Shown one piece after another: positions 9,940 through 32,197 of a stretch of 34,005 nt of DNA (within the stretch, counting starts at the first letter, position 1; the number at the start of each line of letters is the position of its first letter). Source of the DNA: Candidatus Woesearchaeota archaeon. GTDB lineage: Archaea > Nanobdellota > Nanobdellia > Pacearchaeales > CAZSMI01. The stretch spans positions 1 to 34,005 of the forward strand of contig CAZSMI010000002.1 of assembly GCA_964607815.1 (NCBI GenBank), written 5' to 3'. A program made the translations under genes and the position numbers. Under the pieces are notes generated by a model, which worked only from the letters and a program-made list of their open reading frames with translations, was not told the origin of the DNA and searched no databases.

Positions 9940-11166
9940 TCAGAAATCAACAATTGTTTTTTGTTTTGGTTTTTTTGCTTCTTTTGGAGCCAGAAGTTTT
10001 CCATAAACACCAGCTCCTCCTGGAATATATTTTATCTTATCTTCTCTGAAGTATTTAATAAATTTTGCAACTTCCTCGTTGATTATCGCCAGCCTTGTAA
10101 TATCTATATCTAATAGCACTTTAATTTCATTACCAAATTTTTCTATATAATTTCTCCATAAATTTTGCACTCTTTTGGAATACGCCGCTTCGATATTCAA
10201 TGCCAGAGCTATTATTTCACTCAAAGGAATGATATGCTTATATTCTGGTCTATATTCTGGATGTTTGCCTCCGGGCAAATCAGCAAGTTCTGCTATCCTA
10301 TCAGCCACCCCTTTTTTTATTAGCCTACCACATTTATCACATTTCCAGTTAAGCTTTTCTGCTTCTTCCAAAGAAAAAAATTTCAAACAGCTAAAACATC
10401 TTGTTTTATGATATTTTCCTTCTAAAGGATTAAAACCAACATTCAAAATTATCTTATTATTATTTTGTCTTTTCAAGGCTTTCACAATAGCATCATAACT
10501 TAATTCACTTAGAGAAAACTTGTTAAATTCTCTTCCTAGCTTGTTTGGCCATGGTGAATGTCCATCTGAATTACTTAAAAATGTTAGTCTATGTAGTTTA
10601 GAAATTCTATCAGCCATGTTTGTGTCTGCACTCAAGCCAAGTTCTAAAAAATAAATCTGGTTAGCATATTTCCCATAGCATTCTTTTATACTATTATACT
10701 CTTTGAAGATCGCTGTCCATGGTGTAAAAGCATGAGCAGGCCCAATCAAGCAGCCTGCTTCTATACAAATTTCTGCTAATTCTTCTCCATTTAACCAAAT
10801 TTTTGGTCTGCCATCCATATCAATATCCTTACATTTATTTTTGAGCTTTTCTCTTGCCTCTTCTACCTTAGAAAAATTAGGGAAAAAGATAATATGATGT
10901 ACTCTTTTATTATCTTCAACTTCTGTTTGTAAAATGAATTTAGTTCCATTTTCGTGCTCTAATAATCCTATATTTCTATTTTCCCTAAGTTGTTCTTTTA
11001 TTAATTTTAACCATTTAGAATTCAAAATATCTGCTGTACCAAGTAGCTGGAGTCCTTTGAGTGGTGCTTGTTCTGCTATAACTTTTGGAATCATCTTGGT
11101 GCTAGTAGCACCAGAATAAAGTCCATGCAAATGCAAATCAGCATTTATAGTTATATCCTCTTTCAT
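9940..11166 (-). CDS. endoQ: Endonuclease Q (EndoQ; PHP-domain phosphoesterase with Zn ribbon)
   Basis: 408 aa. ADLHLHGLYSGATS, EVEDNKRVHHIIFFP, GPAHAFTPWT, FLELGLSADT, LSNSDGHSP, Zn ribbon CFSC...WKCDKCGRLIKKGVADRI, and a C-terminal PIP-box-like KQKTIVDF. Matches EndoQ as I recall the Pyrococcus protein. Confidence 0.75.
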   Translation of the reverse strand: MKEDITINADLHLHGLYSGATSTKMIPKVIAEQAPLKGLQLLGTADILNSKWLKLIKEQLRENRNIGLLEHENGTKFILQTEVEDNKRVHHIIFFPNFSKVEEAREKLKNKCKDIDMDGRPKIWLNGEELAEICIEAGCLIGPAHAFTPWTAIFKEYNSIKECYGKYANQIYFLELGLSADTNMADRISKLHRLTFLSNSDGHSPWPNKLGREFNKFSLSELSYDAIVKALKRQNNNKIILNVGFNPLEGKYHKTRCFSCLKFFSLEEAEKLNWKCDKCGRLIKKGVADRIAELADLPGGKHPEYRPEYKHIIPLSEIIALALNIEAAYSKRVQNLWRNYIEKFGNEIKVLLDIDITRLAIINEEVAKFIKYFREDKIKYIPGGAGVYGKLLAPKEAKKPKQKTIVDF

Positions 11167-12332
11167 TTTGTACGATATCTTGCAGGATAAAAAGTTAAGC
11201 CATCAGACTTTACCTCTCGAATTTGATAAATTAAATTTTTAAGATAATATTTATGTATCATATTTTGTACATGCCCAAGATTCCTATTTAGTTTCCTGGA
11301 AAGATCTCTAGAAGTAAAAGATCCTTTCCTCTTTTCTATAGATCTCATTGTAGAAAGATAAATTTTAGTGCATTTCTTTTTAGGAAAATGTATCTGCCGA
11401 TTTAAGTCTAACAACTTTTTGAATTTTTTCTTTTTATTTCTATGTTTCAAATTCAATAGCCGATATAATTTTTTAAATTGGATAAAGGAGTGGATTTCAA
11501 GTTGCCATTTTTTTCTATCTTCTCCTTTAGAAGAAGGATATTTTTCGTATTGGTAGATTACAGAATCTATGCCTAAGCTAAGTAACAATTTTTTGATGCC
11601 ATCTAATAAATTAGAATTTTTGTGTGTTTTTTCAAGTGCAAAATCAACCTTCAAATGCCTAGATAGAAAATTTATGCTTCCTTCATCGTCTATAATCTGA
11701 GATATAAATTCTGCCATTTTATCTTTTTCTAAGTTAAAAATAAATTGCGGTATACTTGGGTTGATTTTAACTTTGCTTCCGGGTGATAAGCCTAGCAAAG
11801 AAACAATTTTTCCACACACTGGCGGAAAAGAGACTATTTTAACATCTTTATTATCACTTTTTTCTCTTAGATCATATTCTACATCACCTAAAACCTCCCT
11901 AGAATTTTTGAGAAATTCTTTTATAAGAGTTTCTTGGGAATTAGCATAAAATATGCGATATTTTTTATCTAGACACCCGTCACCAAAAATAGCTGCTATA
12001 AATCTTACTCCTGCTTTTGTTCTAAAATTAAAAGGAATTTTTGGATTTTTTATACAGAAGCCGTCTTTTCCCCTGATAGTCCTAATATTTTTCCTGATTT
12101 CACTATCGCTTATACCTAGAAATTTAGATATTTTTTTAAGAACATCTAGTCTTATTAAACTACTCTCATCTAGCCAATGTCCAACTATTCTATCTACTTT
12201 TGTTTCTTTGAAAAATTGTCTGATTGTAGCTTTTTCTTTAATAATTCTCTTGAGATATTCATAAAATGCTGGTTTGATATCAATAAAAACTCCTTTAGCT
12301 GATAAATCCTCCAATGTTATAATACCCCTCAT
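11163..12332 (-). CDS. Free-standing double-motif LAGLIDADG homing-endonuclease-like protein with HTH-like N- and C-terminal regions
   Basis: 389 aa. Two LAGLIDADG-type motifs, FIAAIFGDGCL and FISQIIDDEGSI, both keeping the acidic residue. 4-nt overlaps with both neighbours. Confidence 0.65.
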   Translation of the reverse strand: MRGIITLEDLSAKGVFIDIKPAFYEYLKRIIKEKATIRQFFKETKVDRIVGHWLDESSLIRLDVLKKISKFLGISDSEIRKNIRTIRGKDGFCIKNPKIPFNFRTKAGVRFIAAIFGDGCLDKKYRIFYANSQETLIKEFLKNSREVLGDVEYDLREKSDNKDVKIVSFPPVCGKIVSLLGLSPGSKVKINPSIPQFIFNLEKDKMAEFISQIIDDEGSINFLSRHLKVDFALEKTHKNSNLLDGIKKLLLSLGIDSVIYQYEKYPSSKGEDRKKWQLEIHSFIQFKKLYRLLNLKHRNKKKKFKKLLDLNRQIHFPKKKCTKIYLSTMRSIEKRKGSFTSRDLSRKLNRNLGHVQNMIHKYYLKNLIYQIREVKSDGLTFYPARYRTK

Positions 12333-15590: not shown

Positions 15591-16457
15591 ATGTTAATAG
15601 CAGATTTTTTGCTTGTAATAATAACCATAGTGTGGCTCATAGCAGCTAGTGTGCAAGATATCAGGAAAAGAGAGGTTGCTAACTGGCTTTGTTTTTCTTT
15701 GCTTTCTATAGCCCTAGCTGTAAGAGCCATAGCAGCAATAATTTTTTCTTCTCCTTTTTATTTTTTGTATGGTCTTGCTGGCTTTGCAGCTTTTTTTTGT
15801 CTTGCTAATTTGCTTTATTATGGAAGACTATTTGCAGGAGGAGACGCAAAGCTTTTCATGGCTTTAGGAGCAGCACTGGCAACATATCCTGTTTTTGCTA
15901 AAACAGGAGGAATAATAATAACACCTTTTTTGCTTATTTTTCTGGTTAATTCCTTGTTTATAGGCTCGGTTTATGGAATCTTTTTTAGTATATTTCTTGC
16001 AACAAAAAACAGAAAAAAATTTGCTAAAGAAATAAAGGGGAAATGGAAAATTGGGTACTCCTGGTTTTTTGTCCTTTTTGTATTATTAGTTTTTTTTGCG
16101 TTCACAAGCAAAATTTTCTTTCTTAATTTTCTTGCATTTCTTTTCCTTGTTCCATATCTTTTTTTATTTGTAAAGGCAGTTGAAAATTCATGTATGGTAA
16201 GAATGTTGAGACCAGAACAAATAACAGAAGGAGACTGGCTTGTCAATACGCTAAGAATAAGAACCAAGAAAAAAATCATTACAATAAAACCAACTTGGGA
16301 AGGGCTGAGCAAGAAAGAAATTGCCTTGATAAAAAAAGCAAAAATAAAAAAAATAAAAATAAAATATGGTGTGCCTTTTGTTCCTGTTTTTCTTTTTGCC
16401 CTAATTGCTAGCTTCTTTAGCAATATACTTTTTTGGCTTGTTAGTTTGATCGCTTAA
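15591..16457 (+). CDS. A24-family prepilin/preflagellin peptidase (PibD/FlaK-like)
   Basis: 288-aa polytopic membrane protein with the two aspartyl motifs of the family: AASVQDIRKREVANWL and LFAGGDAKLFMALGA. Confidence 0.7.
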   Translation: MLIADFLLVIITIVWLIAASVQDIRKREVANWLCFSLLSIALAVRAIAAIIFSSPFYFLYGLAGFAAFFCLANLLYYGRLFAGGDAKLFMALGAALATYPVFAKTGGIIITPFLLIFLVNSLFIGSVYGIFFSIFLATKNRKKFAKEIKGKWKIGYSWFFVLFVLLVFFAFTSKIFFLNFLAFLFLVPYLFLFVKAVENSCMVRMLRPEQITEGDWLVNTLRIRTKKKIITIKPTWEGLSKKEIALIKKAKIKKIKIKYGVPFVPVFLFALIASFFSNILFWLVSLIA

Positions 16458-19881: not shown

Positions 19882-20856
19882 TTATTCCTTGTCTGACAAG
19901 CCTTCTTTTGTGATAAAGAAAAGTGCTTCTGATTCTGGCAAGTTAGGAGAGTCAATAAGTTTTGCAACTCTTGAGCCTTTTTTTCCTCTTCTCAAATACA
20001 GTCTGAATGTGCTGGCGTGTCCCAAAATATGGCCTCCAATTGCAGTAGTAGGATCACCAAACATTATAGCAGGATTTGCCATTACTTGATTTGTTACATA
20101 AACTGCTAGATTATATTTTTCAGCAAGTCTTCCAAGATCATGTAAATGTCTGTTTAACCTTTGCTGCCTGTCTGCTAGCATTCCTCTTCCTGTAAATTCT
20201 GCGCGAAAATGTGCAATCAAAGAATCAACAACAACAAGTTTGATTGGTTCTCCTTTTGTAATAAGGTCAGCAACTTTTTCTACAAGCAACATTTGATGAT
20301 CACTATTAAAAGCTCTAGCTATCATTATGTTTTTCAAAACTTTTTCTGGATTTGCTCCTATACCTTCTGCTATTTGCTTGATTCTTTCTGGCCTGAATGT
20401 GCCTTCTGTGTCTATGAAAACTGCCTTGCCAGCTGCACCACCTTTTTCTTTTGGTAACTGAACATTTACTGCCAAGGCAAAACCAAGCTGGCTTTTTCCA
20501 GAACCATAAGCACCAAAAGTTTCTGTTATTGCTTTTGTTTCTATTCCCTTTCCACCAAGAAGATTATCAAAATTTTTGCTTCCTGTTGTAATTGTCAAAA
20601 CTTCTCCTCTCTTTTTAAGATATTGAGAAGCATCCTGAAAACCTAAATCAAGCATTTTTCTTGCTGCTTGTATAGCTTTCCTTGCTACTGCCTCGCTTAT
20701 ACCACTTGTATTACTTAACTCAGCAGGAGCCAAGACAGCTATGCTCATCAAATCACTTATGCCAGCTGATTCTAGTTTAGCAGCCACAGTAGGGCCAATA
20801 CCTGGCAAATCAGTAATCTTGTATTCTTTCTTTCTTTCCTTTTCTTTTTCTACCAT
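19882..20856 (-). CDS. radA: DNA repair and recombination protein RadA
   Basis: 324 aa. N-terminal HhH region [20 protein letters not shown], Walker [11 protein letters not shown], Walker B LVVVDSL, and the C-terminal GGHILGHAS motif. Confidence 0.92.
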
Positions 20857-22379: not shown

Positions 22380-23138
22380 CTATTTTTCAAGTGCAAATTT
22401 TATTTCTATGGGAGCAAATTTCTCTTTCTCGTCAGTAAAAAAGAAGCTTTTTTTTGTTTTGATATCAAAAAACAAATAACCGTTTTTGGTAACAACAACA
22501 GAATAATTTTCATTTTCCATGCATTTTTCAAGTTCTGTCTCTGCCTTGCATCCCTTGGCTTTTTCATACAAAAAGATAAAGTCTTCTGGTTTCAATTCGA
22601 GTTCGAGCTCAAAAGAAAAATCCGGTCTGTATCTTGCAGAGTGGGGAAAATCTTTTCCTACTGGAGATAATATAACTTCTTTCTCTTCTGCTTTTGCAAC
22701 AAGATTATCGCCCTCAATTAAAAATTCATAATCTGTAACAAAATCTTTATCTGGATAGCTTTCTAAAAATTTAATAAAATTTTCGTTAATGTGAAAAAGA
22801 AATTTTTCTTCAAGTTCCTCTTTTGATAATATACATTCATCTTTTATAACCATATAACCAGAAAAAACTTGGCAATTGGCAAAATCTTGATTTTCTGCAA
22901 TTTCTTGAAAAGCTTGCTGGCTTGTAAGTTTTGTGCTCTGCTTAGCATAAAAAACAAACCGATCAGTTTCATCATAAAGTTCAATTAGTCCAGAAGGTGT
23001 TGTTATTAGAAGTGAAACTTTGTTCTCTACCGTAATAAAGGTGAATAAGGCATAGCCAACCAAAATAACGGTCGCTATTGCTATGAAAAATGCAAAAGCC
23101 TGGGCTTTTTTGTTTTTTCTCTGCATTGGTATTAACAT
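22380..23138 (-). CDS. Pilin-like protein (class III signal-like N-terminus), function unknown
   Basis: 252 aa. The N-terminus MQRKNKKAQAFAFFIAIATVILVGYALF is followed by a soluble domain with no recognised motif. Confidence 0.55.
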   Translation of the reverse strand: MLIPMQRKNKKAQAFAFFIAIATVILVGYALFTFITVENKVSLLITTPSGLIELYDETDRFVFYAKQSTKLTSQQAFQEIAENQDFANCQVFSGYMVIKDECILSKEELEEKFLFHINENFIKFLESYPDKDFVTDYEFLIEGDNLVAKAEEKEVILSPVGKDFPHSARYRPDFSFELELELKPEDFIFLYEKAKGCKAETELEKCMENENYSVVVTKNGYLFFDIKTKKSFFFTDEKEKFAPIEIKFALEK

Positions 23139-23161
23139 TTTTTTAATTTTTTCAGTTTATT

Positions 23162-23716
23162 TTATTTTAATTTTTTCGAGCATTCGCTGTCCAAAAGCAG
23201 TCTTGTTTTGATTATTCTTGCTCCTAGAACAGGGACTATCACTTCAGCATAATTCTTGAAAACGAGACCTGTGTTGCCTACTATAAGGTTGCCAGATTCT
23301 TTTATATCCGGATCATAGTAAGGATTTTTATAATCTCTATCTCGCATATAGTAAGGAATCCTAAATTGATAACAGTTTCCATAAATACCAAAAATTTTTT
23401 CTGTTTCTTCTTTTAGTATTGGTTCATAAGATCTATCTAAACCATACAAAAGAATAAGATCTGAAAAAGTTATCTCTTGTTCTTTTCCATCAATCATGAC
23501 AGTTACAGAACTTTGTAAATAAGTTTCAAGAACCTCAAGACTAGGAATTTTATCATACAAAATTTTTGCTTGTTTTGCAGAAGGCCTTATTTTTATAGCC
23601 TGAGTTGCAATAAAAAAAATTATCAATATAAGGCCTACAACTATTGTTGCTGCAATGATTGTAATTGTTGTCCCAATTGCCCTTTTATCTTTTATTTTTT
23701 TAAACATTTTTTTCAA
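23162..23716 (-). CDS. Pilin-like protein (class III signal-like N-terminus)
   Basis: 184 aa. N-terminus KIKDKRAIGTTITIIAATIVVGLILIIFF. The start could be 23716 or 23707. Confidence 0.55.
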   Translation of the reverse strand: MKKMFKKIKDKRAIGTTITIIAATIVVGLILIIFFIATQAIKIRPSAKQAKILYDKIPSLEVLETYLQSSVTVMIDGKEQEITFSDLILLYGLDRSYEPILKEETEKIFGIYGNCYQFRIPYYMRDRDYKNPYYDPDIKESGNLIVGNTGLVFKNYAEVIVPVLGARIIKTRLLLDSECSKKLK

Positions 23717-24236
23717 ATTTTCTTATTCCAATTAGCAATTCAAGCATGTTTTTTCCAGCAAGAAGATATTTTTGTTCCAGGCACTCAAGAGGATATTTCA
23801 TTTTTTTCTCTAGCTTGCAATAAACTTCAAAATCTTTGTTGCCAAGGACATCACTCTCTGCAACTTTTGTTTTATCTTCTTCAAAAAGAGTTGCACTAAT
23901 GTAATACTCTTTCTTATCAATTCTCAGATTGCATTTTTCAATATCTAATTCATGCAAAACACCATTTTTTATCAAGCATTCACTTACTTGTTTTGCAAGT
24001 AACTGTGCTTCTGCTTTTCTTATATCACACTCTTTTGAGTAAAAGCTTGCAACAGTTCCTGCTATAACCAAAACTATGATTATAAGGAGAAAAAAACGAG
24101 CAAGCATCAAGGGAATCTCTTTTCCTATCAATTGTGCTTTTTTATTTTTTAAATTATCTAAATATCGATAAAACGACATAACCCTCTTTTTTTCATTATC
24201 AATTTTGTTTCCTATTTTCATTTTTATTTTTATCAA
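23700..24236 (-). CDS. Pilin-like protein (class III signal-like N-terminus)
   Basis: 178-aa ORF. The motif LKNKKAQLIGKEIPLMLARFFLLIIIVLVIAG lies 30 residues in, so the true start is probably the internal ATG at 24179 (MSFYRYLDNLKNKKAQ...). Confidence 0.5.
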   Translation of the reverse strand: MIKIKMKIGNKIDNEKKRVMSFYRYLDNLKNKKAQLIGKEIPLMLARFFLLIIIVLVIAGTVASFYSKECDIRKAEAQLLAKQVSECLIKNGVLHELDIEKCNLRIDKKEYYISATLFEEDKTKVAESDVLGNKDFEVYCKLEKKMKYPLECLEQKYLLAGKNMLELLIGIRKFEKNV

Positions 24237-24583
24237 CTTATTTTTATCAAAACACGAGCATCTTTTTTTTCTATTTCAATATGATAAGGAGAAAAAAAAT
24301 CATAAGAATATCCTGTTTTTTCTTTCTCACTTACTTTTACATTGTTTCCTTCTATAACAAGAGAAAAATTTCCCGTGTAGAGGGTTATTTCTGTTTTTGG
24401 TCTTGCAGCATCTATCAACAAAGCAGCTTGTTTTGCAAGCACTTGCTGTTCAAGTAATTTTCCAGAAGCTGCTGTTCTTATGAAAAGGAGCAATGACGCA
24501 AAAACTGCCAAGGCTATAACAAGAAAAATTATAAAGCTAAGCAAAGATTCTTGTGCCCTCTTCCCTTTTTCTCCTCTTTTCAT
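24233..24583 (-). CDS. Pilin-like protein (class III signal-like N-terminus)
   Basis: N-terminus MKRGEKGKRAQESLLSFIIFLVIALAVFASLLLF. The ORF-track start at 24592 is a TTG. ATG 24583 sits 21-28 nt downstream of a TATA-like box and is preferred. Confidence 0.6.
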   Translation of the reverse strand: MKRGEKGKRAQESLLSFIIFLVIALAVFASLLLFIRTAASGKLLEQQVLAKQAALLIDAARPKTEITLYTGNFSLVIEGNNVKVSEKEKTGYSYDFFSPYHIEIEKKDARVLIKIS

Positions 24584-24603
24584 TCTAAACAAAAGAAAAA
24601 GGA

Positions 24604-24611
24604 ATTAATAA
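24604..24611 (-). promoter_or_regulatory. TATA-like box (GATTTATTAATTCC) for the 116-aa pilin-like gene
   Basis: The minus strand reads TTTATTAA 21-28 nt upstream of ATG 24583. The longer GATTTATTAATTCC context overlaps the stop codon of the upstream gene. Confidence 0.4.
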
Positions 24612-24614
24612 ATC

Positions 24615-25415
24615 TTATGGGATGGTTTGAATATCTGTACAACCGATAGAATAAATTTGTTCTGGTTTAAATTCTATTATGTTGAGCAAAGCAGAAAACT
24701 CCGGTATTTCATAAAGCCCTTTTTCTCTAAAATAACCGTCAAGAGCTTCTTCTGATAAAGCACCAGCAACAGAAGCCAGAATTATCGGAATGCCTCCAGT
24801 ACATGCTGCCACTACCCCTACAGCAACTCCTGCAGCAGTCATTTTAAATAGACGATTGTGGATAAAGGTAGGTTCTCCTACTAATACTATAACAGCGTAG
24901 TTTTTGTCTGTATCAATAATTATTTTTTCTTTTGCTTCATTACTAAAGTACTCCATAAAAGTTATATCCTTGCCAGCAATTTTTGTTTTATTCAAAAAAT
25001 CAAACAAATCAACCTTTTTCCTTTTTGCTTTTTCTTCAAAATATATAGTTGAACAAATCATACAATGATTTTTTGTGAAAAATTCTCCTGGAAAAAAATC
25101 TAGCTTTCCCTCCCCTAACATCCACCAGCAATCATACATAGCATTTGCAATTTTTTTCTTTATTATTTCCTCGTCTTCATCATAAATCACAATCGATTCT
25201 GTTTTGCATTTCAAGGAAACTGTTTTTCTTAAAATGGTACCTAGAGGTCCTTTGATAGACCTTGACAAAACACTTTGATGACATGTTTCTTTGTCAATAA
25301 CCTCTGTCCATCCAATCTGGTTTATAAAAAGTATTATTATCCCAAAACAGATTACTGCAACAATAATGCCAATAAGCATTTTTGCTTCTATTCCTTTTTT
25401 GTCTTTTAGTTTCAT
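24615..25415 (-). CDS. Pilin-like membrane protein (class III signal-like N-terminus plus a C-proximal TM segment)
   Basis: 266 aa. N-terminus MKLKDKKGIEAKMLIGIIVAVICFGIIILF, with a second hydrophobic stretch AAGVAVGVVAACTGGIPIILASVAGAL. Confidence 0.55.
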   Translation of the reverse strand: MKLKDKKGIEAKMLIGIIVAVICFGIIILFINQIGWTEVIDKETCHQSVLSRSIKGPLGTILRKTVSLKCKTESIVIYDEDEEIIKKKIANAMYDCWWMLGEGKLDFFPGEFFTKNHCMICSTIYFEEKAKRKKVDLFDFLNKTKIAGKDITFMEYFSNEAKEKIIIDTDKNYAVIVLVGEPTFIHNRLFKMTAAGVAVGVVAACTGGIPIILASVAGALSEEALDGYFREKGLYEIPEFSALLNIIEFKPEQIYSIGCTDIQTIP

Positions 25416-25743: not shown

Positions 25744-26778
25744 CTAAGTTTCTTGAAAAAACCCTTCATAAATTTTTTTGAACAAGGCATTTGCCTGTAT
25801 GTGTGGTGTATAAACATATAAAGCGCCAGTTGCTTTATTAGCGGGCCTTATCTCCTGATTATCAACCTTTATCGTATCCCCCACTACCCATTCATCAAAT
25901 CTATGTCTAAAAGTTTCTGTTGCACAGATTATTTGTTTTTCAAAACCACCATATCTCTCTTTTCTTTCTTCCTGTTCTTCTTTACTTACTTCAGATATAC
26001 CACAACCAGTAGCAATCTTTACTCTTTCATTAAATTCTTCTCTTGCTTTTTCATTTAGAACTATCAGGCCTTGCTCTTTTTGTATTGTTGCAATTATTAC
26101 TTTTGGATTTATTTCTTTTTCTTTACAATTCTCATAAATTATTTGTGAAGCAGATTTTTCTCCTACTTTGTAGTCTGCCAGCAAAGAATCTTTTTGTTCT
26201 AAGAAATCTTGGATTTCCTTTTTGTTCATGGAAAGCTCTTGAAATTCTTCATCGCTTATTATATTACTTATAGAAAAAACAAATTTTTCTTTTTCTGTTA
26301 TGTTATAAAATGCTGGCTCACTTGTTATAAAAAATTCACTAACTGTTATTTTCTTGAGAAAAAGCTGTTTATCTTGGACAATCGGCTTGTCTATGACTCT
26401 ACAATAACCAGCTTTTATGCAGTCTATTCTTATTCTATGCCTGCATATACAAACGCAATTTTTTCCCTTACAGATTGTAGGAACTTGGTCAGCATTGAAA
26501 TGTCTATTTCCATCTATATCAAAAGCGACAACATACCATCCTTTAGGAGCAAGTAGGAACAAAGGGCTGCTTCCTTCTTTTTTTGCCTCTTCTAAAGCGC
26601 GGATAATAGCATCTATCTGTCCTGATGCTTGTAATTTTTCCTGACCATAAAAAAACATTCCTGCAATAGAAACAAAAAAAAACAGCAAAACACCTGCAAG
26701 TATCAAGCCTACAATCAAATTGAAAACAAATTTCAATAAAGTCATACCTCTTTTGTTTCTACTAATCATACTAAGCAT
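25744..26778 (-). CDS. Pilin-signal protein with Cys-rich middle region and C-terminal lysozyme-like/cell-wall-hydrolase-like module (tentative)
   Basis: 344 aa. N-terminus SRNKRGMTLLKFVFNLIVGLILAGVLLFFF, then a Cys cluster TICKGKNCVCICRHRIRIDCIKAGYC. The C-terminal ~170 aa contain EIQDFLEQKDSLLADY, INPKVIIATIQKEQGLI and ATGALYVYTPH. Confidence 0.6.
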   Translation of the reverse strand: MLSMISRNKRGMTLLKFVFNLIVGLILAGVLLFFFVSIAGMFFYGQEKLQASGQIDAIIRALEEAKKEGSSPLFLLAPKGWYVVAFDIDGNRHFNADQVPTICKGKNCVCICRHRIRIDCIKAGYCRVIDKPIVQDKQLFLKKITVSEFFITSEPAFYNITEKEKFVFSISNIISDEEFQELSMNKKEIQDFLEQKDSLLADYKVGEKSASQIIYENCKEKEINPKVIIATIQKEQGLIVLNEKAREEFNERVKIATGCGISEVSKEEQEERKERYGGFEKQIICATETFRHRFDEWVVGDTIKVDNQEIRPANKATGALYVYTPHIQANALFKKIYEGFFQET

Positions 26779-26826: not shown

Positions 26827-27174
26827 CTAGGTTTTGGGGCAGACATCTGTACAATCTATATCACAATCAAATAACGCTGTTCTGTTATCTAGTTCATCAC
26901 AGGTAAGCTCCTCTGGTTTTTTTGGGTCTGTTGGATCCAAGCCCCTTACTGTATGTTTTGTACAACAAAATTCAAATGTTGAAGCGGTTGTGCAGTGTAT
27001 TTTACACTGACTTACAATAGCATCAACATTTGTTGTTGTAAAAAAACCAGTTACTTTGCTCCACATTTGTTGCCAGCCCATAGCAAAACCTGCCACAAGT
27101 ATTACTAACACAATTACTGCAAGTATCACCAAAACAATTGTTGTTACACTTAATCCTTGTCCTTTTTTGTCCAT
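26827..27174 (-). CDS. Small Cys-rich pilin candidate (class III signal)
   Basis: 115 aa. MDKKGQGLSVTTIVLVILAVIVLVILVAGF is the closest match here to the archaeal K-G-Q prepilin motif. 8 Cys in the 70-aa C-terminal part. GAGG lies about 5-10 nt upstream of the ATG. Confidence 0.65.
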   Translation of the reverse strand: MDKKGQGLSVTTIVLVILAVIVLVILVAGFAMGWQQMWSKVTGFFTTTNVDAIVSQCKIHCTTASTFEFCCTKHTVRGLDPTDPKKPEELTCDELDNRTALFDCDIDCTDVCPKT

Positions 27175-27739: not shown

Positions 27740-29869
27740 CTAGCCTGCGCCTATGCCACCAACTGCTATGTTTGCAAGCAAGCTTAGGGCAAGGGTTGCA
27801 AGCAAAGCCACTATAAAATAAAGGAAAATCCCTCCTCTCAAATTTCCTGAGATTTCTGATTTTTCGCTTAACTTGTCAACACCGCTTTCTACTATTACTA
27901 AGGTGCCTGTCAGAATAAAAACAATTTCTATCAAATAAATTCCTATTACTATCTGTAAAAAATAAGGGGGTATCATTTCTGTAATGTTGAACATTTCTGT
28001 TAGTGTTCCTATCGTGCCAAACATACCTACTTCTGTTTCTGCCCCTAGTTCAGGCAACATTGTTTGCAACTTTCCAAATATGCTTGTTATCATTGTTGAT
28101 AAGCCAACAACTATTCCTGTCAAAACAGGAGCAAGGAACGTCATATTACTTTTCATATCGCTTATTATATCTGCAAGCAAATCTCTAAGCCTTTCATTAA
28201 TTTTTCCTATGTTCTTTACATATTGCGAGATGCTCATCAGTGCTCTTGCAGCAACTTGCAATCCTCTCTTGACACTTTCAACAAGAATTTGCATGCTTGT
28301 TTTTACTAGTGTTGAAGGATAAAAAATAATTGCTCCCCTTCTTTTGTTGAATATTGCTTGTTCAACAGACATGCCTGCTTGTTGTATGTTGCTGTTAACT
28401 ATTTTGAAAAAACCAGCTGTTGCTGTTCCTCTTGTTGACTCAGCAACTCTTGCAAAAGCAATTTCTGCTGGCATTCCATCTCCTAAACGATTACCAAGTT
28501 GGAATATACTAGAAGAAAATTCTCTTTCAAAATCTTTTGTTTCTCTTCTTGTTTTTATAAGCTCTTTGGTTTTGAGCTGATATGATATGGAAAAAAACAA
28601 GGCTATACTTAAAGGTATGAGCAAACTCAGAAGTAATGCTAAAAGACCAAAAGGTCCTTTGCCATCACGAAAATCAAATGCTTGCATTTCTGCCCCAAAC
28701 AAAGAAAAACTAAAATCATTTTGCAAGCCGAGCATGGCAGGCAGTTGAGTTTGAAAAAGTAAGGGCAAAAGCCCTATAATAAAAATAGGCAAAGAAAATG
28801 CCAAAGCAATATAAAAGGGCTTTCTGCTGCTATATTTCACGTAATCTGGATTTTGTTCTAGTAACTCAGTCTCACCATAACCTCCCGGTCTTTTACTTAA
28901 TACTTGAGAAGTTAAATAAAAAACAAAAAAAGGAACTATCATATTAAAGAATATAGCAACATGAAACCAGTTTATTGCTCCTCCCAGTAAGGCAGAAGCT
29001 AAAGGTAGTATTGCAATTGCTAGAGTAGGAAGAACTATTCCCAACATGTAAAGATTTGTTAATGGTGCACGAACATCATGAACATAATGCAACATTTTGT
29101 CATGTACACCATCCAAAATAATCTCAAGTGATTTTTCAAGAACTTCTATTCTTCTTGCCTCACTTGGCTCATACAAACTGCTTTCTATAAGATGAAAAGA
29201 TTCTATAAATTCTGGACTATATCCTCTCCAATTTTCTAAATAAGAATCTAGACTTTCTTTTATTGTGCTATATTTGCCTATTTCAACATCATAAAAAATT
29301 TTTTTGAAATCTAGGGCAAGAGGCGCTTGTAAATGCATGCTTGCAAATTCTATTGCCTTTTCCAAGTTGCTCGTATGTCTCATATAAACAACCACATATA
29401 AAATGCATGGAACCATTTGAGAACTTGCTTTTAGACGCCATGACTGTGCAAGTCTTCCGGGCATGTTATTTGTGTAGTAAAACAAGAAGAGAGAAAAGAA
29501 GAACAACAAAAATAATAGAATAAAAGGAAAAATTCCTGTGATGAGGAAAACAGCAAATGGAATAAGAATGGAAACAACTAGAGACGACAGCAAGATAAGA
29601 ATAGAAAATGCTATTGTGTCTGAAGCACTCAACTCTAGATGTGCTGTTTTTAGCTGGCTACTAATTCTTTTTTCATCTTCTTTTTTCAGCCTTACTTTTA
29701 TTTTCTTGCCAATACCCTTACATAATCTTTCGTATCTTGTGAAAGAGGGCATTGTTTCTTCCCTGAAGCGTTGGTATTCCTTGCTAAAGCCTGTAGGAGT
29801 CACACTAGTTGTCTCTCTTTCTAGCTTTGCCTCAAATTTTTTGAGAATCTCTTCAACATCTCTTACCAT
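27740..29869 (-). CDS. Polytopic membrane protein, probable pilus/archaellum assembly platform (FlaJ/TadC/PilC-type, T2SS F-like)
   Basis: 709 aa with many hydrophobic helices in two clusters separated by soluble segments. Lies 36 nt downstream of the secretion ATPase, the usual archaeal arrangement. Family assigned by context, not by a recognised motif. Confidence 0.5.
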   Translation of the reverse strand: MVRDVEEILKKFEAKLERETTSVTPTGFSKEYQRFREETMPSFTRYERLCKGIGKKIKVRLKKEDEKRISSQLKTAHLELSASDTIAFSILILLSSLVVSILIPFAVFLITGIFPFILLFLLFFFSLFLFYYTNNMPGRLAQSWRLKASSQMVPCILYVVVYMRHTSNLEKAIEFASMHLQAPLALDFKKIFYDVEIGKYSTIKESLDSYLENWRGYSPEFIESFHLIESSLYEPSEARRIEVLEKSLEIILDGVHDKMLHYVHDVRAPLTNLYMLGIVLPTLAIAILPLASALLGGAINWFHVAIFFNMIVPFFVFYLTSQVLSKRPGGYGETELLEQNPDYVKYSSRKPFYIALAFSLPIFIIGLLPLLFQTQLPAMLGLQNDFSFSLFGAEMQAFDFRDGKGPFGLLALLLSLLIPLSIALFFSISYQLKTKELIKTRRETKDFEREFSSSIFQLGNRLGDGMPAEIAFARVAESTRGTATAGFFKIVNSNIQQAGMSVEQAIFNKRRGAIIFYPSTLVKTSMQILVESVKRGLQVAARALMSISQYVKNIGKINERLRDLLADIISDMKSNMTFLAPVLTGIVVGLSTMITSIFGKLQTMLPELGAETEVGMFGTIGTLTEMFNITEMIPPYFLQIVIGIYLIEIVFILTGTLVIVESGVDKLSEKSEISGNLRGGIFLYFIVALLATLALSLLANIAVGGIGAG

Positions 29870-29905: not shown

Positions 29906-32197
29906 TTAAGTTTTTGCTCTCTTTACTTCTTCTTTGAGCCAGTCTTTCCATTCTCTCAGCACTCTTTCCCCTTCTGGCAGCCCAATTTCTTTACTTACCA
30001 TGTCAGATATTATATGAAACATGTTGTTGCTTTTTACTGTAAAAGGAGCTTCTAACAAAGAAGGCATTTTTGTTTTTCCTGCTACCTTTACAATTTCTTC
30101 TTTTATTTTTGCTCTCAACAAGATATTGTCCCAGACAGCATCCCAGTTGCCAGCCCATCCTTTTACATTAGCGGCAACTGCCTTGAGGGTTTCGCTTTCT
30201 CCATTAACTAAATCAGGTGTTGCTTCTAGCTCATCTTTTTGCACATTATATTTCAAGAGGTCAACAAAACCTTTTTCATCAAGAGGATCTTCTCTCCAAT
30301 GCTTTCTTACTTCTGTAATTTGCATAAGCCTTTTCCAGCTATGCAATCCATCTGGACTTTTGATAGGGTTTGTTACTGCTATAATATCAGTAGCTTTGAA
30401 ACTTGTGATTGGTACTTGTAAATCATTTACTACTCTATCAAAAACAGCATAAGGGCTTGCACCATGTATAGTACCGGCAACAACATTTGCTAAAGCTCCA
30501 ATTCTCATGGCCTCGTAAAGAGCTTTTGCTTCTAAAGAACGAATTTCTCCAATAATAAGACTACTGTCACCTAATCTCAAACTAACTCTGATAGCCTCGT
30601 CTGCTGGCACTTCTGTTGTTGTTTTCAGCAAGGCAGCTCTTGCTTTCATCCTCAATATATCATAATTTAATTTTCTCAAAGTATCTACTGGCAGCTCAAG
30701 AACATCTTCCAAAACAATAATGCGATATTTTGGCATTATTTCTAAAAGTAAAGATCCTAACAAAGAAGTTTTTCCAGATGAGCGAGTACCTGCCACGAGA
30801 AGGGTTCTTGCTCCTTCTATCAAAAAGCTAAATAAACCAGCAGCCAAAGGGTTCAACATTTTATTTTGTGCAAATAAGGCCAATGTCCAGGGCATTTCCC
30901 TGTGTCTTCTGAAAGCATAAGCAAGTCCATAAGGACTTAGTGGTTGCTGGATTATTGCTACTCTTGCCCTGATATTTTTGATGAGCAGGTCAGTATCAAG
31001 AACAGGATTTGCTTCATCTAATGGTCTGCCAGACAGCATTCTGAACTTTGCAGCCCATGAGTCAGCATCCTCAGTAGAAGGTACAATATTTGTAAAACAC
31101 TCATCATAACCCTGATGTCTTATGAAAATTGGTACTTGACTTACAGGAGAATTAACAACAATATCTTGCAGCCTTTCATCTTGCAATAGCACTTCTATCA
31201 GGCCAAAACCAATTGTATGCCTTACGAGAATTGTTGCAAGTTTATTGAGTTTTCTATAACTAATTTTTATTTTTTTGCTGTTTGCAAGTTCTTGTAACAA
31301 GTCTCTCGCAATATTAAAAAAAACCTGTCTTGTTCTTGCCGGGTCAGTAAATTCTTCTGCTCTTGGTCTATGTTCTAGTAAAACATTTCTTGCAAGATCC
31401 AGTAAAGAGTAATATTCTTCTTCTAGAGCATACTCTGGAGGCATCAGATGATAAAGGAACTTTGTTCTTCCTGGCAACTTCAGGATTGTAACATCACTTA
31501 TGTCTTGTTCCTCCCCTATAACATATCTGTCTATTATTTCTGCTTCTGATGGAATAGAAGATGCTAGCCTAGTAAAAGTAATATTTGGCAAAACATCTGG
31601 ACGAAAAATTCTTGCATAAATTTCTCTACTGCCTATTTTGTGTGCTTTTATGTAAGGCTGGGCTTGTTTTATCAACCCTGTTTTTTCTAGCAGCTCAACA
31701 ATCTTGCCAAGAAGTCTCAGGTAGATACCTTCACATGTGTTACATTGTTCTGGCAACTTCCTTGCATTAATTTTTTCTTCTCTCAACAAGCGTTTAGACT
31801 CAACATAACAGCCTATTGGGTCTTGTTTTAACAAAGTAAGGACAAGATATCTCATCGCATTATATCTTCCTGCCAAACATTTTTTACATTCAAAAGGTGT
31901 AAGTTTCTGCATGGACAAAACCTTTTCTTGTTTTACAAGATAATTGTAAAGTTGCGCAATTTCTACAAGCAATGCTGCTTGAGAAAAATCATAGCTATAG
32001 TTTCTTTGCTGAACAAAAACTATCCTGCTAACATCTGGCTGCTCTACAAGAGAATCTATTGTGCGAGACATGCACAAAGCAGAGTCTGCAAGACTTGGTA
32101 TACTTGTTGCTCCTAAATAGTTTATGAATATGACATTTTGTCCAGCTTCTCTTGTTACTTCATAACTATAAAGAGCAGTACCTTTTTTGAACAACAT
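29906..32197 (-). CDS. Type II/IV secretion-family ATPase (FlaI/PilB/VirB11-like) with extended N-terminus
   Basis: 763 aa. Walker A LVAGTRSSGKTSLLGSLL (around residue 470), Asp box/Walker B IIVLEDVLELP and SLIIGEIRSLEA, His box AGTIHG. The N-terminal extension carries CKKC...CNTC. Confidence 0.8.
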   Translation of the reverse strand: MLFKKGTALYSYEVTREAGQNVIFINYLGATSIPSLADSALCMSRTIDSLVEQPDVSRIVFVQQRNYSYDFSQAALLVEIAQLYNYLVKQEKVLSMQKLTPFECKKCLAGRYNAMRYLVLTLLKQDPIGCYVESKRLLREEKINARKLPEQCNTCEGIYLRLLGKIVELLEKTGLIKQAQPYIKAHKIGSREIYARIFRPDVLPNITFTRLASSIPSEAEIIDRYVIGEEQDISDVTILKLPGRTKFLYHLMPPEYALEEEYYSLLDLARNVLLEHRPRAEEFTDPARTRQVFFNIARDLLQELANSKKIKISYRKLNKLATILVRHTIGFGLIEVLLQDERLQDIVVNSPVSQVPIFIRHQGYDECFTNIVPSTEDADSWAAKFRMLSGRPLDEANPVLDTDLLIKNIRARVAIIQQPLSPYGLAYAFRRHREMPWTLALFAQNKMLNPLAAGLFSFLIEGARTLLVAGTRSSGKTSLLGSLLLEIMPKYRIIVLEDVLELPVDTLRKLNYDILRMKARAALLKTTTEVPADEAIRVSLRLGDSSLIIGEIRSLEAKALYEAMRIGALANVVAGTIHGASPYAVFDRVVNDLQVPITSFKATDIIAVTNPIKSPDGLHSWKRLMQITEVRKHWREDPLDEKGFVDLLKYNVQKDELEATPDLVNGESETLKAVAANVKGWAGNWDAVWDNILLRAKIKEEIVKVAGKTKMPSLLEAPFTVKSNNMFHIISDMVSKEIGLPEGERVLREWKDWLKEEVKRAKT

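Follow-up and report, generated by a model that had tools for sequence, protein, structure and literature searches.

The two-module gene and its genome

We analyzed a stretch of 34,005 nucleotides from a Candidatus Woesearchaeota archaeon (assembly GCA_964607815.1, contig CAZSMI010000002.1, positions 1–34,005 of the forward strand), hereafter called the window, and in particular a gene on its minus strand (25744–26778) that is a candidate for a wall-degrading glycosidase displayed by a pilus-like system. An ATG starts the frame of 344 amino acids. The protein is referred to as P0001 and the source assembly as G000; further G, L, and P numbers denote genomes, loci, and proteins of the analysis. 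An earlier note on this DNA had described a protein of three parts, namely a prepilin-like N-terminus, a six-Cys cluster, and a C-terminal region with several motifs, and on translation all of the quoted motifs were in place: NKRG-MTLLKFVFNLIVGLILAG at residues 8–28, the Cys cluster CKGKNCVCICRHRIRIDCIKAGYC at 103–126, EIQDFLEQKDSLLADY at 188–203, INPKVIIATIQKEQGLI at 223–239, and ATGALYVYTPH at 316–326. The gene has the following features:

25744–26778, minus strand: whole open reading frame, 344 amino acids and a stop codon, with an N-terminal module of the pilus locus (N-module) and a GH73-like C-terminal module of lysozyme fold (C-module); open reading frame translation, phmmer
26746–26778, minus strand: residues 1–11, MLSMISRNKRG, basic leader ending in K-R-G, predicted class III/prepilin-like signal; conservation, motif
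26647–26745, minus strand: residues 12–44, hydrophobic helix, membrane anchor or N-terminal half of a pilin alpha-1 helix; hydropathy, AlphaFold2
26287–26646, minus strand: residues 45–164, extracellular part of the N-module with QA.G helix, P.GW strand, Cys cluster, and KP motif; alignments
26401–26472, minus strand: residues 103–126, six-Cys cluster, which may form disulfides or a metal site; invariance
25747–26286, minus strand: residues 165–344, lysozyme-like domain without annotation, closest to GH73 N-acetylglucosaminidases; AlphaFold2, Foldseek, hhalign
26074–26076, minus strand: codon of E235 (in QKEQ), predicted catalytic general-acid Glu; conservation, hhalign
25990–25992, minus strand: codon of E263, candidate second carboxylate, where the family consensus is Asp (90%); 233-domain alignment
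25801–25812, minus strand: residues 323–326, YTPH, near-invariant, tentative counterpart of the GH73 Y-A-T/P-D/S motif; conservation, low-confidence alignment

Searching 1.8 billion representative proteins with phmmer produced 1250 matches at E ≤ 1e-3, including 242 at E ≤ 1e-10, far more than chance would give. They formed two non-overlapping sets, covering residues ~8–162 (N-module; 22 of the 150 top proteins) and ~165–342 (C-module; about 130 of the 150). Both modules occurred together only in P0001 and in P0002, which has the same architecture and is 42% identical (E = 7.9e-51). An intact copy of the gene, 98% identical, was found on the public metagenome contig Ga0210051_1039936 (L138:503-1534), and further near-identical copies were found on contigs Ga0210049_1109720 and Ga0066637_10020430. 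The 98% variant differs by eight substitutions, two synonymous and six non-synonymous, too few to inform a polymorphism test; six of the eight lie in residues 151–176, in the linker between the modules (~150–176). The rarity of the exact combination, known from only two representative proteins, would fit a fusion that arose by chance or is decaying and that has no function. However, the frame is intact, the family-invariant residues are all kept, the operon position is conserved, and both a homologue of the same architecture and an intact metagenomic copy exist; we consider such a fusion extremely improbable.

The archaeal origin of the window was marked by RadA (Rad51 family, E = 1.6e-92), an RPA-type OB-fold protein with an archaeal DUF2240 domain, and a geranylgeranyl-reductase-like flavoprotein. 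The assembly was 0.66 Mb in size and consisted of 84 contigs, with an estimated completeness of 81%; genomes of the same phylum range from 0.5 to 1.9 Mb. It is a reduced genome of the DPANN type.

Fold, family, and distribution of the C-module

The C-module was modeled by AlphaFold2 from an alignment of 29 sequences, with a predicted local distance difference test score (pLDDT) of 94 and a predicted template modeling score (pTM) of 0.90. A comparison of the predicted structure with known folds had been proposed as a check, and it was carried out with this model. The first 12 Foldseek matches in the PDB were all GH73 peptidoglycan N-acetylglucosaminidases, the best being AtlE of S. aureus (4pi7_A; E = 2.9e-3, probability 1.00, TMq 0.55); pneumococcal LytB, SagB, Acp of C. 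perfringens, and the Atl glucosaminidase were also among them. GH23/GH103 lytic transglycosylases, goose-type (g-type) lysozymes, and Tse3 followed. Matches in the viral structure library were lysozyme-like only (SLT, glucosaminidase, and tail-lysin).

Profile comparison with hhalign pointed in the same direction. The family alignment (A2) matched a GH73-like profile, built from 12 PF01832 matches of the same archaeal phylum and the GH73 tail of one N-module fusion, with 93% probability (E = 2.8e-7), while the controls gave 3.6% for SLT and 0.2% for the unrelated N-module, which served as the negative control. The stretch I-x-x-F-L ... I-N-P-x-x-x-x-A-x-x-Q-K-E-Q was aligned with the GH73 helix pair ending at the catalytic Glu, and E235 fell on the catalytic Glu of the GH73 "HES" motif; QKEQ would thus supply the predicted catalytic residue, a possibility raised in the earlier note. 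A permissive alignment paired LYVYTPH with the GH73-like LPVYAPS, though only where its confidence was low.

Among 233 aligned domains, E235 and Q282 were conserved in 100% and G258, T317, Y323, and P325 in 99%, so that the pattern "INP...QKEQ...YTP", quoted in the earlier note, proved to be a true family signature. Position 263 was acidic, with Asp in 90% of the domains and Glu in P0001. Domains fused to the C-module in full-length homologues included Peptidase_S11, Beta-lactamase2, SH3_3/SH3_4, Peptidase_M23, PG_binding_1, LysM, Peptidase_M15_4, and NlpC/P60. The sole functional name found in the family was that of a distant member, P0182 (WP_291760671.1, Bifidobacterium sp.), annotated in RefSeq as "hemagglutinin".

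The last annotation bears on the possibility that the C-module has no catalytic activity and serves as an adhesin head for glycan or peptidoglycan, using its lysozyme-like cleft only to grip the host wall. Binding modules are common on modular pilins (PMC8179133), and Castelle et al. proposed binding besides degradation for SLT proteins of DPANN archaea (PMC8204110). On the other hand, the putative catalytic Glu is conserved without exception in the 233 domains, the second acidic position is conserved as well, and the cargo that occupies the same slot in relatives (see below) belongs to genuine enzyme families, amidase and M23 among them. We regard an adhesin head as improbable.

No match to PF01832, the GH73 model, was obtained at E ≤ 1 either with P0001 or with any of 25 domain sequences, and PF01832 was not found in the source assembly. 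Since the test with this hidden Markov model (HMM) failed, the C-module was not filed as a member of GH73. It shares with GH73 (AtlE, SagB, Atl-GL, LytB, and Acp; PF01832) the best structural matches, the profile alignment through the helix pair to the catalytic Glu, possibly the YTPH counterpart of the Y-A-T/P motif, and the same kinds of partners (SH3, LysM, and M23). It differs from GH73 in about 15% identity in structural alignments at a TM of about 0.55, in the lack of a PF01832 match, and in its motifs, since GH73 has (H/L)ES-GWG, whereas the C-module has QKEQ, an invariant Q282, and a WA.G.G..D loop; moreover, it forms a large family of its own, centered on Patescibacteria. Membership in SLT/GH23 (PF01464) was rejected: no PF01464 match was found, the hhalign probability was that of the control given above, and the sequence has no GLMQ motif. 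SLT_4 was matched by 2 of 25 family members, only at E of about 0.04.

It is therefore fold, profile, and partner domains, instead of library annotation, that link the C-module to lysozymes and GH73. The earlier suggestion of a lysozyme- or hydrolase-like module is supported by the first two of these, while no library annotates the domain as a lysozyme. As modeled, the C-module is a GH73-related family of the lysozyme-like superfamily, not covered by existing models, that keeps the predicted catalytic Glu.

The C-module was found in 119 of 301 sampled genomes of Patescibacteria (taken from the phylum of a Kuenenbacteria genome) vs. 3 of 301 sampled genomes of the archaeal phylum to which the window belongs: the source assembly, G140, and one genome with a weak partial match. 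In species-representative genomes, a pattern scan for one subgroup alone yielded 571 confirmed stretches, and the best 80 of them belonged mostly to Kuenen-, Magasanik-, Uhr-, Falkow-, and Buchananbacteria or to unclassified Patescibacteria. These counts, together with the partners Peptidase_S11, M23, SH3, PG_binding_1, and LysM, agree with the bacterial-type character claimed before; judged by abundance of its sequences, the C-module is bacterial-type and sporadic in archaea.

A quick maximum-likelihood tree, unrooted, placed P0001 with P0003 and P0004 (SH-aLRT 83), followed by P0002 and P0175 (79). In P0004, a PEF-CTERM sorting signal of archaeal type scored above the cut-off, and an M23 domain is also present. 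The protein of G140, a genome of the same class (G140:C5, L119:6298-10224), comprises 1309 amino acids with Peptidase_M23 and a QKEQ domain, which falls elsewhere in the tree than that of P0001 and for this reason suggests a separate acquisition. The C-module was probably transferred between lineages more than once, with direction and number read from an unrooted, moderately supported tree. A phylogeny had been proposed as a test of bacterial origin; abundance supports the bacterial-type character, and the direction of transfer is inferred.

The N-module, its pilus-like locus, and exchangeable cargo

The N-terminus reads MLSMISRNKRG|MTLLKFVFNLIVGLILAGVLLFFFV, i.e., a short basic leader is followed directly by a hydrophobic helix. 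K9, R10, and G11 were invariant in the six closest N-modules. The maximum of Kyte–Doolittle hydropathy over 19 residues was 2.92 in the N-terminal helix; AlphaFold2 predicted a helix over residues 9–51, with pLDDT of 81–90 for residues 11–40. RGMTLL of P0001 fits the class III signal pattern of the FlaFind type. The signature of the N-module consists of [KR]-G, a hydrophobic helix, a Q-A-x-G helix, a P-x-G-W strand, and a K-P motif, with the Cys pattern C-x4-C-x-C-x-C ... C-x5-C. All of 20 N-modules compared have C110, C112, C120, and C126, and the six nearest have C103 and C108 as well, which makes the Cys cluster a feature of the family. The N-module is common: 129 of 301 genomes of the phylum encode it, as do all 14 of the same order, and hardly any of them has more than one copy.

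The gene of P0001 lies within a one-strand cluster with a run of small proteins whose N-termini show a basic stretch, G/A, and a hydrophobic segment. The neighboring genes are the following:

29906–32197, minus strand: secretion/pilus ATPase, 763 amino acids; Pfam T2SSE E = 6.2e-11, syntenic in relatives
27740–29869, minus strand: polytopic membrane protein, 709 amino acids, platform candidate; synteny with ATPase, E down to 1e-283
26827–27174, minus strand: pilin candidate of 115 amino acids (MDKKGQG-LSVTTIVLVIL...) directly upstream of the P0001 gene, best candidate for the major pilin; sequence, synteny
22380–25415, minus strand: five downstream pilin-like/locus genes (266, 119, 178, 184, and 252 amino acids); syntenic in relatives
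15591–16457, plus strand: prepilin peptidase gene, Peptidase_A24, 288 amino acids; PF01478, 54.9 bits, above cut-off

A comparison of 20 neighborhoods revealed a conserved gene order: ATPase, platform, p115 pilin-like, N-module, p266, p119, p178, p184, and p252. The 709-amino-acid protein, a constant companion of the ATPase, gave neither a T2SSF nor any other significant Pfam match and may represent a platform-protein family that is not yet modeled. About 9 kb separate the Peptidase_A24 gene from the pilus locus, and the two lie on opposite strands; G000:C72:1559-1918 contains another A24-like frame with a weaker match. The prepilin-like N-terminus proposed before holds at the level of sequence and context, given RGMTLL with the helix, the fixed slot in the pilus locus, and Peptidase_A24 in the window, and at this level the N-module is supported as pilin-like.

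In relatives, the same N-module was found without cargo or with the following cargo:

Several genomes: N-module without cargo, proteins of 154–216 amino acids
G267: SLT, 363 amino acids
G153: SLT and Amidase_2, 560 amino acids
G033: SLT and Peptidase_M23, 682 amino acids
G056: Phage_lysozyme (GH24), 383 amino acids
P0055: GH73
P0111: 3D domain
Many proteins: extensions without Pfam matches, several of them Cys-rich

Murein hydrolases were fused to the N-module in 9–10 of the 11 fused proteins among the closest relatives of that of P0001. The architecture had been called unusual; the exact combination was seen in only two representative proteins, P0001 and P0002, but the architecture is not a one-off, as the N-module carries other murein hydrolases in relatives. 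A murein hydrolase on every N-module protein was considered and rejected, with SLT in 1 of 36 further, more distant extended proteins and many N-modules standing alone. Predicted murein hydrolases are one recurrent class of cargo, enriched near P0001, and not the rule.

Long extensions without Pfam matches were encoded at L114:8039-9307, L115:7388-8455, L121:8004-9704, L152:640-2121, L174:661-2472, and L170:588-3137; those of L121, L152, L174, and L170 were extremely Cys-rich, with repeated units rich in C-x-x-C. Such extensions would be further head domains on this carrier. In G084 and G232, two other genomes of the phylum, a large, separate gene of the GH73 type was found 2.4–4 kb from the N-module gene (G084:C1:17442-17933 and 20330-20695; G232:C4:42749-43090 and 46796-47203), in frames of 668 and 988 amino acids; at the pilus locus, murein hydrolases may thus have genes of their own, too. 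Elsewhere in the window, an open reading frame of 389 amino acids (11163–12332, minus strand) contained a homing-endonuclease-like LAGLIDADG_3 domain (E = 1.2e-6) and adjoined one of 408 amino acids without Pfam matches.

Proposed function and relation to known systems

We propose, with a probability of roughly 55%, that P0001 is a pilin-like muralytic glycosidase displayed by the pilus system and aimed at bacterial walls. Through its N-module, P0001 would either be anchored in the membrane or, once the prepilin peptidase has cleaved it, enter the pilus machinery, probably as a minor or tip subunit. With E235 as the general acid, the C-module would hydrolyze the glycan strands of bacterial peptidoglycan. 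The enzyme would act on the wall of a bacterium touched by the pilus, whether host or prey, and local cutting would aid attachment, penetration, or access to nutrients. Cutting at the site of pilus contact is proposed because the enzyme is tethered to a module of the pilus locus that is combined with other murein hydrolases in relatives. Two Peptidase_M23 genes are encoded elsewhere in the genome (G000:C57:356-640 and G000:C28:6314-6544, both on the minus strand; loci L141 and L142; open frames of 329 and 418 amino acids; 108.5 and 62.5 bits), and these endopeptidases may act together with P0001.

A number of observations weigh against this reading. No pilin model of Pfam matched the N-module (among 20 N-modules there was one T4SS_pilin match at E = 0.011 and one N_methyl match at E = 0.71), NCBIfam and PHROGs gave nothing for it, and PDB matches to the N-terminal helices of geopilin were not significant (E = 0.34–0.47). 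The hydrophobic stretch of the N-terminal helix is broken by Lys at +5 and Asn at +9. In the full-length AlphaFold2 model, calculated from an alignment with just two other rows covering the N-module, a helix over residues 9–67 was followed by strands, and pLDDT was below 50 for residues 71–161. The missing pilin-model match, the non-significant PDB matches, and the low pLDDT are the reasons why we call the N-module pilin-like and not a pilin. The C-module was unseen by every curated HMM, with no match in Pfam, NCBIfam, or PHROGs, and nothing matching it was found among PDB sequences by single-protein or profile searches. Its similarity in fold was moderate (TM of about 0.5–0.56, E ≥ 2.9e-3); the confident stretch of the hhalign alignment extended over only 47 columns, and the GH73-like reference alignment was small and self-selected. 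Just 1 of 36 further, more distant extended N-module proteins carried SLT; since most N-module proteins carry no recognizable murein hydrolase, the core role of the N-module lies in something other than murein hydrolysis. Finally, the completeness of the assembly (81%) makes it weak evidence that no Mur-type ligase was found there; SLT (PF01464) and Amidase_2 were not found either.

Some of these points are shared by the main rival explanation, according to which the same enzyme is displayed in another way: as an uncleaved signal-anchored protein, either a stationary part of the pilus assembly or an ectoenzyme, it would cut at the contact zone without ever entering a filament. The N-module without a pilin-model match and with a fold of low pLDDT would fit this explanation, as would the charged and polar residues within the hydrophobic segment, the departure of several homologues from the cleavage-site pattern (KALLIR, RGKMLL, and KGTEEL), and the size of the N-module, which with about 150 amino acids and its Cys cluster is bigger than the short pilins of the locus. 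Yet [KR]-G is conserved directly ahead of the helix, a prepilin peptidase gene is nearby, the gene stands among pilin-like genes directly after the candidate for the major pilin, and the architecture parallels that of bacterial modular pilins (PMC8179133). We consider a signal anchor outside the filament rather unlikely.

Regarding the target of the proposed pilus-displayed glycosidase, the cell probably makes no murein itself, because the assembly yielded no gene for a Mur ligase. Remodeling of its own wall was deemed unlikely on the same ground, with the reservation of an 81%-complete genome, and a foreign bacterial wall is proposed as the target because no gene for murein synthesis was found, so that self-use is not evident. 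The target might also be something other than murein, such as pseudomurein if the host is a methanogen, a different glycan of archaeal envelopes, or chitin-like material; alternatively, the enzyme might cut the envelope of its own cell for passage of the pilus. The nearest relatives of the C-module (P0002, P0003, and P0004) look archaeal, the cultivated DPANN archaea are generally known to have archaeal hosts, and GH73-like clefts bind polymers of N-acetylglucosamine, as in complexes with NAG-NAM. However, the family is overwhelmingly found in murein-containing Patescibacteria, fused to DD-carboxypeptidase, M23, and PG_binding domains; the alternative cargoes Amidase_2, M23, and SLT are murein-specific; and no Mur-type ligase for a wall of the cell's own was found in the genome. 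A non-murein target appears very improbable.

Among known systems, FlgJ, VirB1, and EtgA are peptidoglycan hydrolases of bacterial trans-envelope machines that open the sacculus of the producer. They are similar to P0001 in that a muralytic domain is encoded in a gene cluster for a filament or secretion; in contrast, no murein synthesis gene was found in this archaeon, so a foreign target is to be expected. The extracellular SLT/GH23 proteins of Woese- and Pacearchaeota were read as binding or degrading bacterial walls (PMC8204110, PMC9723730); very large proteins of up to 3000 amino acids were described in one of these papers. These are likewise bacterial-type domains cleaving glycan strands in archaea with small genomes, and SLT occupies the same slot of the N-module in relatives, whereas the catalytic domain of P0001 is not SLT and no PF01464 was found in its genome. 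The secreted peptidoglycan hydrolases with which haloarchaea kill bacteria (Halogranum salarium; PMC12352652) are also archaeal, act on bacterial peptidoglycan, and were acquired across domains; unlike P0001, the domain of which is unannotated and tethered to a module of the pilus locus, they are soluble, secreted proteins of recognized families in free-living haloarchaea. A word search of the texts of PMC8204110, PMC9723730, and PMC12352652 found no mention of pili, so that the link to pili seems not to have been made in the first two.

Bacterial modular type IV pilins, such as PilB and PilC of Streptococcus sanguinis, present grafted modules (PMC8179133). In both cases a linker connects a short N-terminal module, which is pilin-like in P0001, with a functional one, the gene lies in a pilus locus, and many alternative modules occur on one carrier. 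P0001 differs in being archaeal, in a carrier unmatched by pilin models, and in a cargo that is a predicted wall-degrading enzyme and not an adhesin; its place in a filament is presumptive. Archaea, peptidoglycan, and hydrolase were not mentioned in PMC8179133 according to a word search.

Murein hydrolases of archaea and modular pilins of bacteria have each been described before. What look new are the carrier of an archaeal pilus locus with exchangeable murein-hydrolase cargo, the GH73-like family without a database model, and their combination. A broader view, which we hold only tentatively, is that the pilus-like filament of this lineage serves as a wall-breaching tool, the conserved minor or tip subunit of which carries murein hydrolases grafted repeatedly (the GH73-like domain, SLT, GH24, GH73, 3D, amidase, and M23), some of them from co-resident Patescibacteria. 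If this is true, members with such cargo would be episymbionts or predators of bacteria and not of archaea, and the QKEQ domain would be a new, unclassified family of glycoside hydrolases.

To our knowledge, no archaeon of the Woese-/Pacearchaeota type has been cultivated with a bacterial host, and for this reason the interactions and hosts of these very abundant archaea are still open. A murein hydrolase in a pilus locus joins a presumed organelle of cell contact to an enzyme that would be sensible only against bacterial walls. The loose hint that some DPANN archaea have SLT genes thereby becomes a testable mechanism and a marker for lineages with bacterial hosts. The C-module family itself, with more than 1000 representatives and a presence in about 40% of the sampled Patescibacteria, is invisible to surveys of peptidoglycan hydrolases based on CAZy or Pfam; it may qualify as a new family of glycoside hydrolases and might yield antibacterial enzymes.

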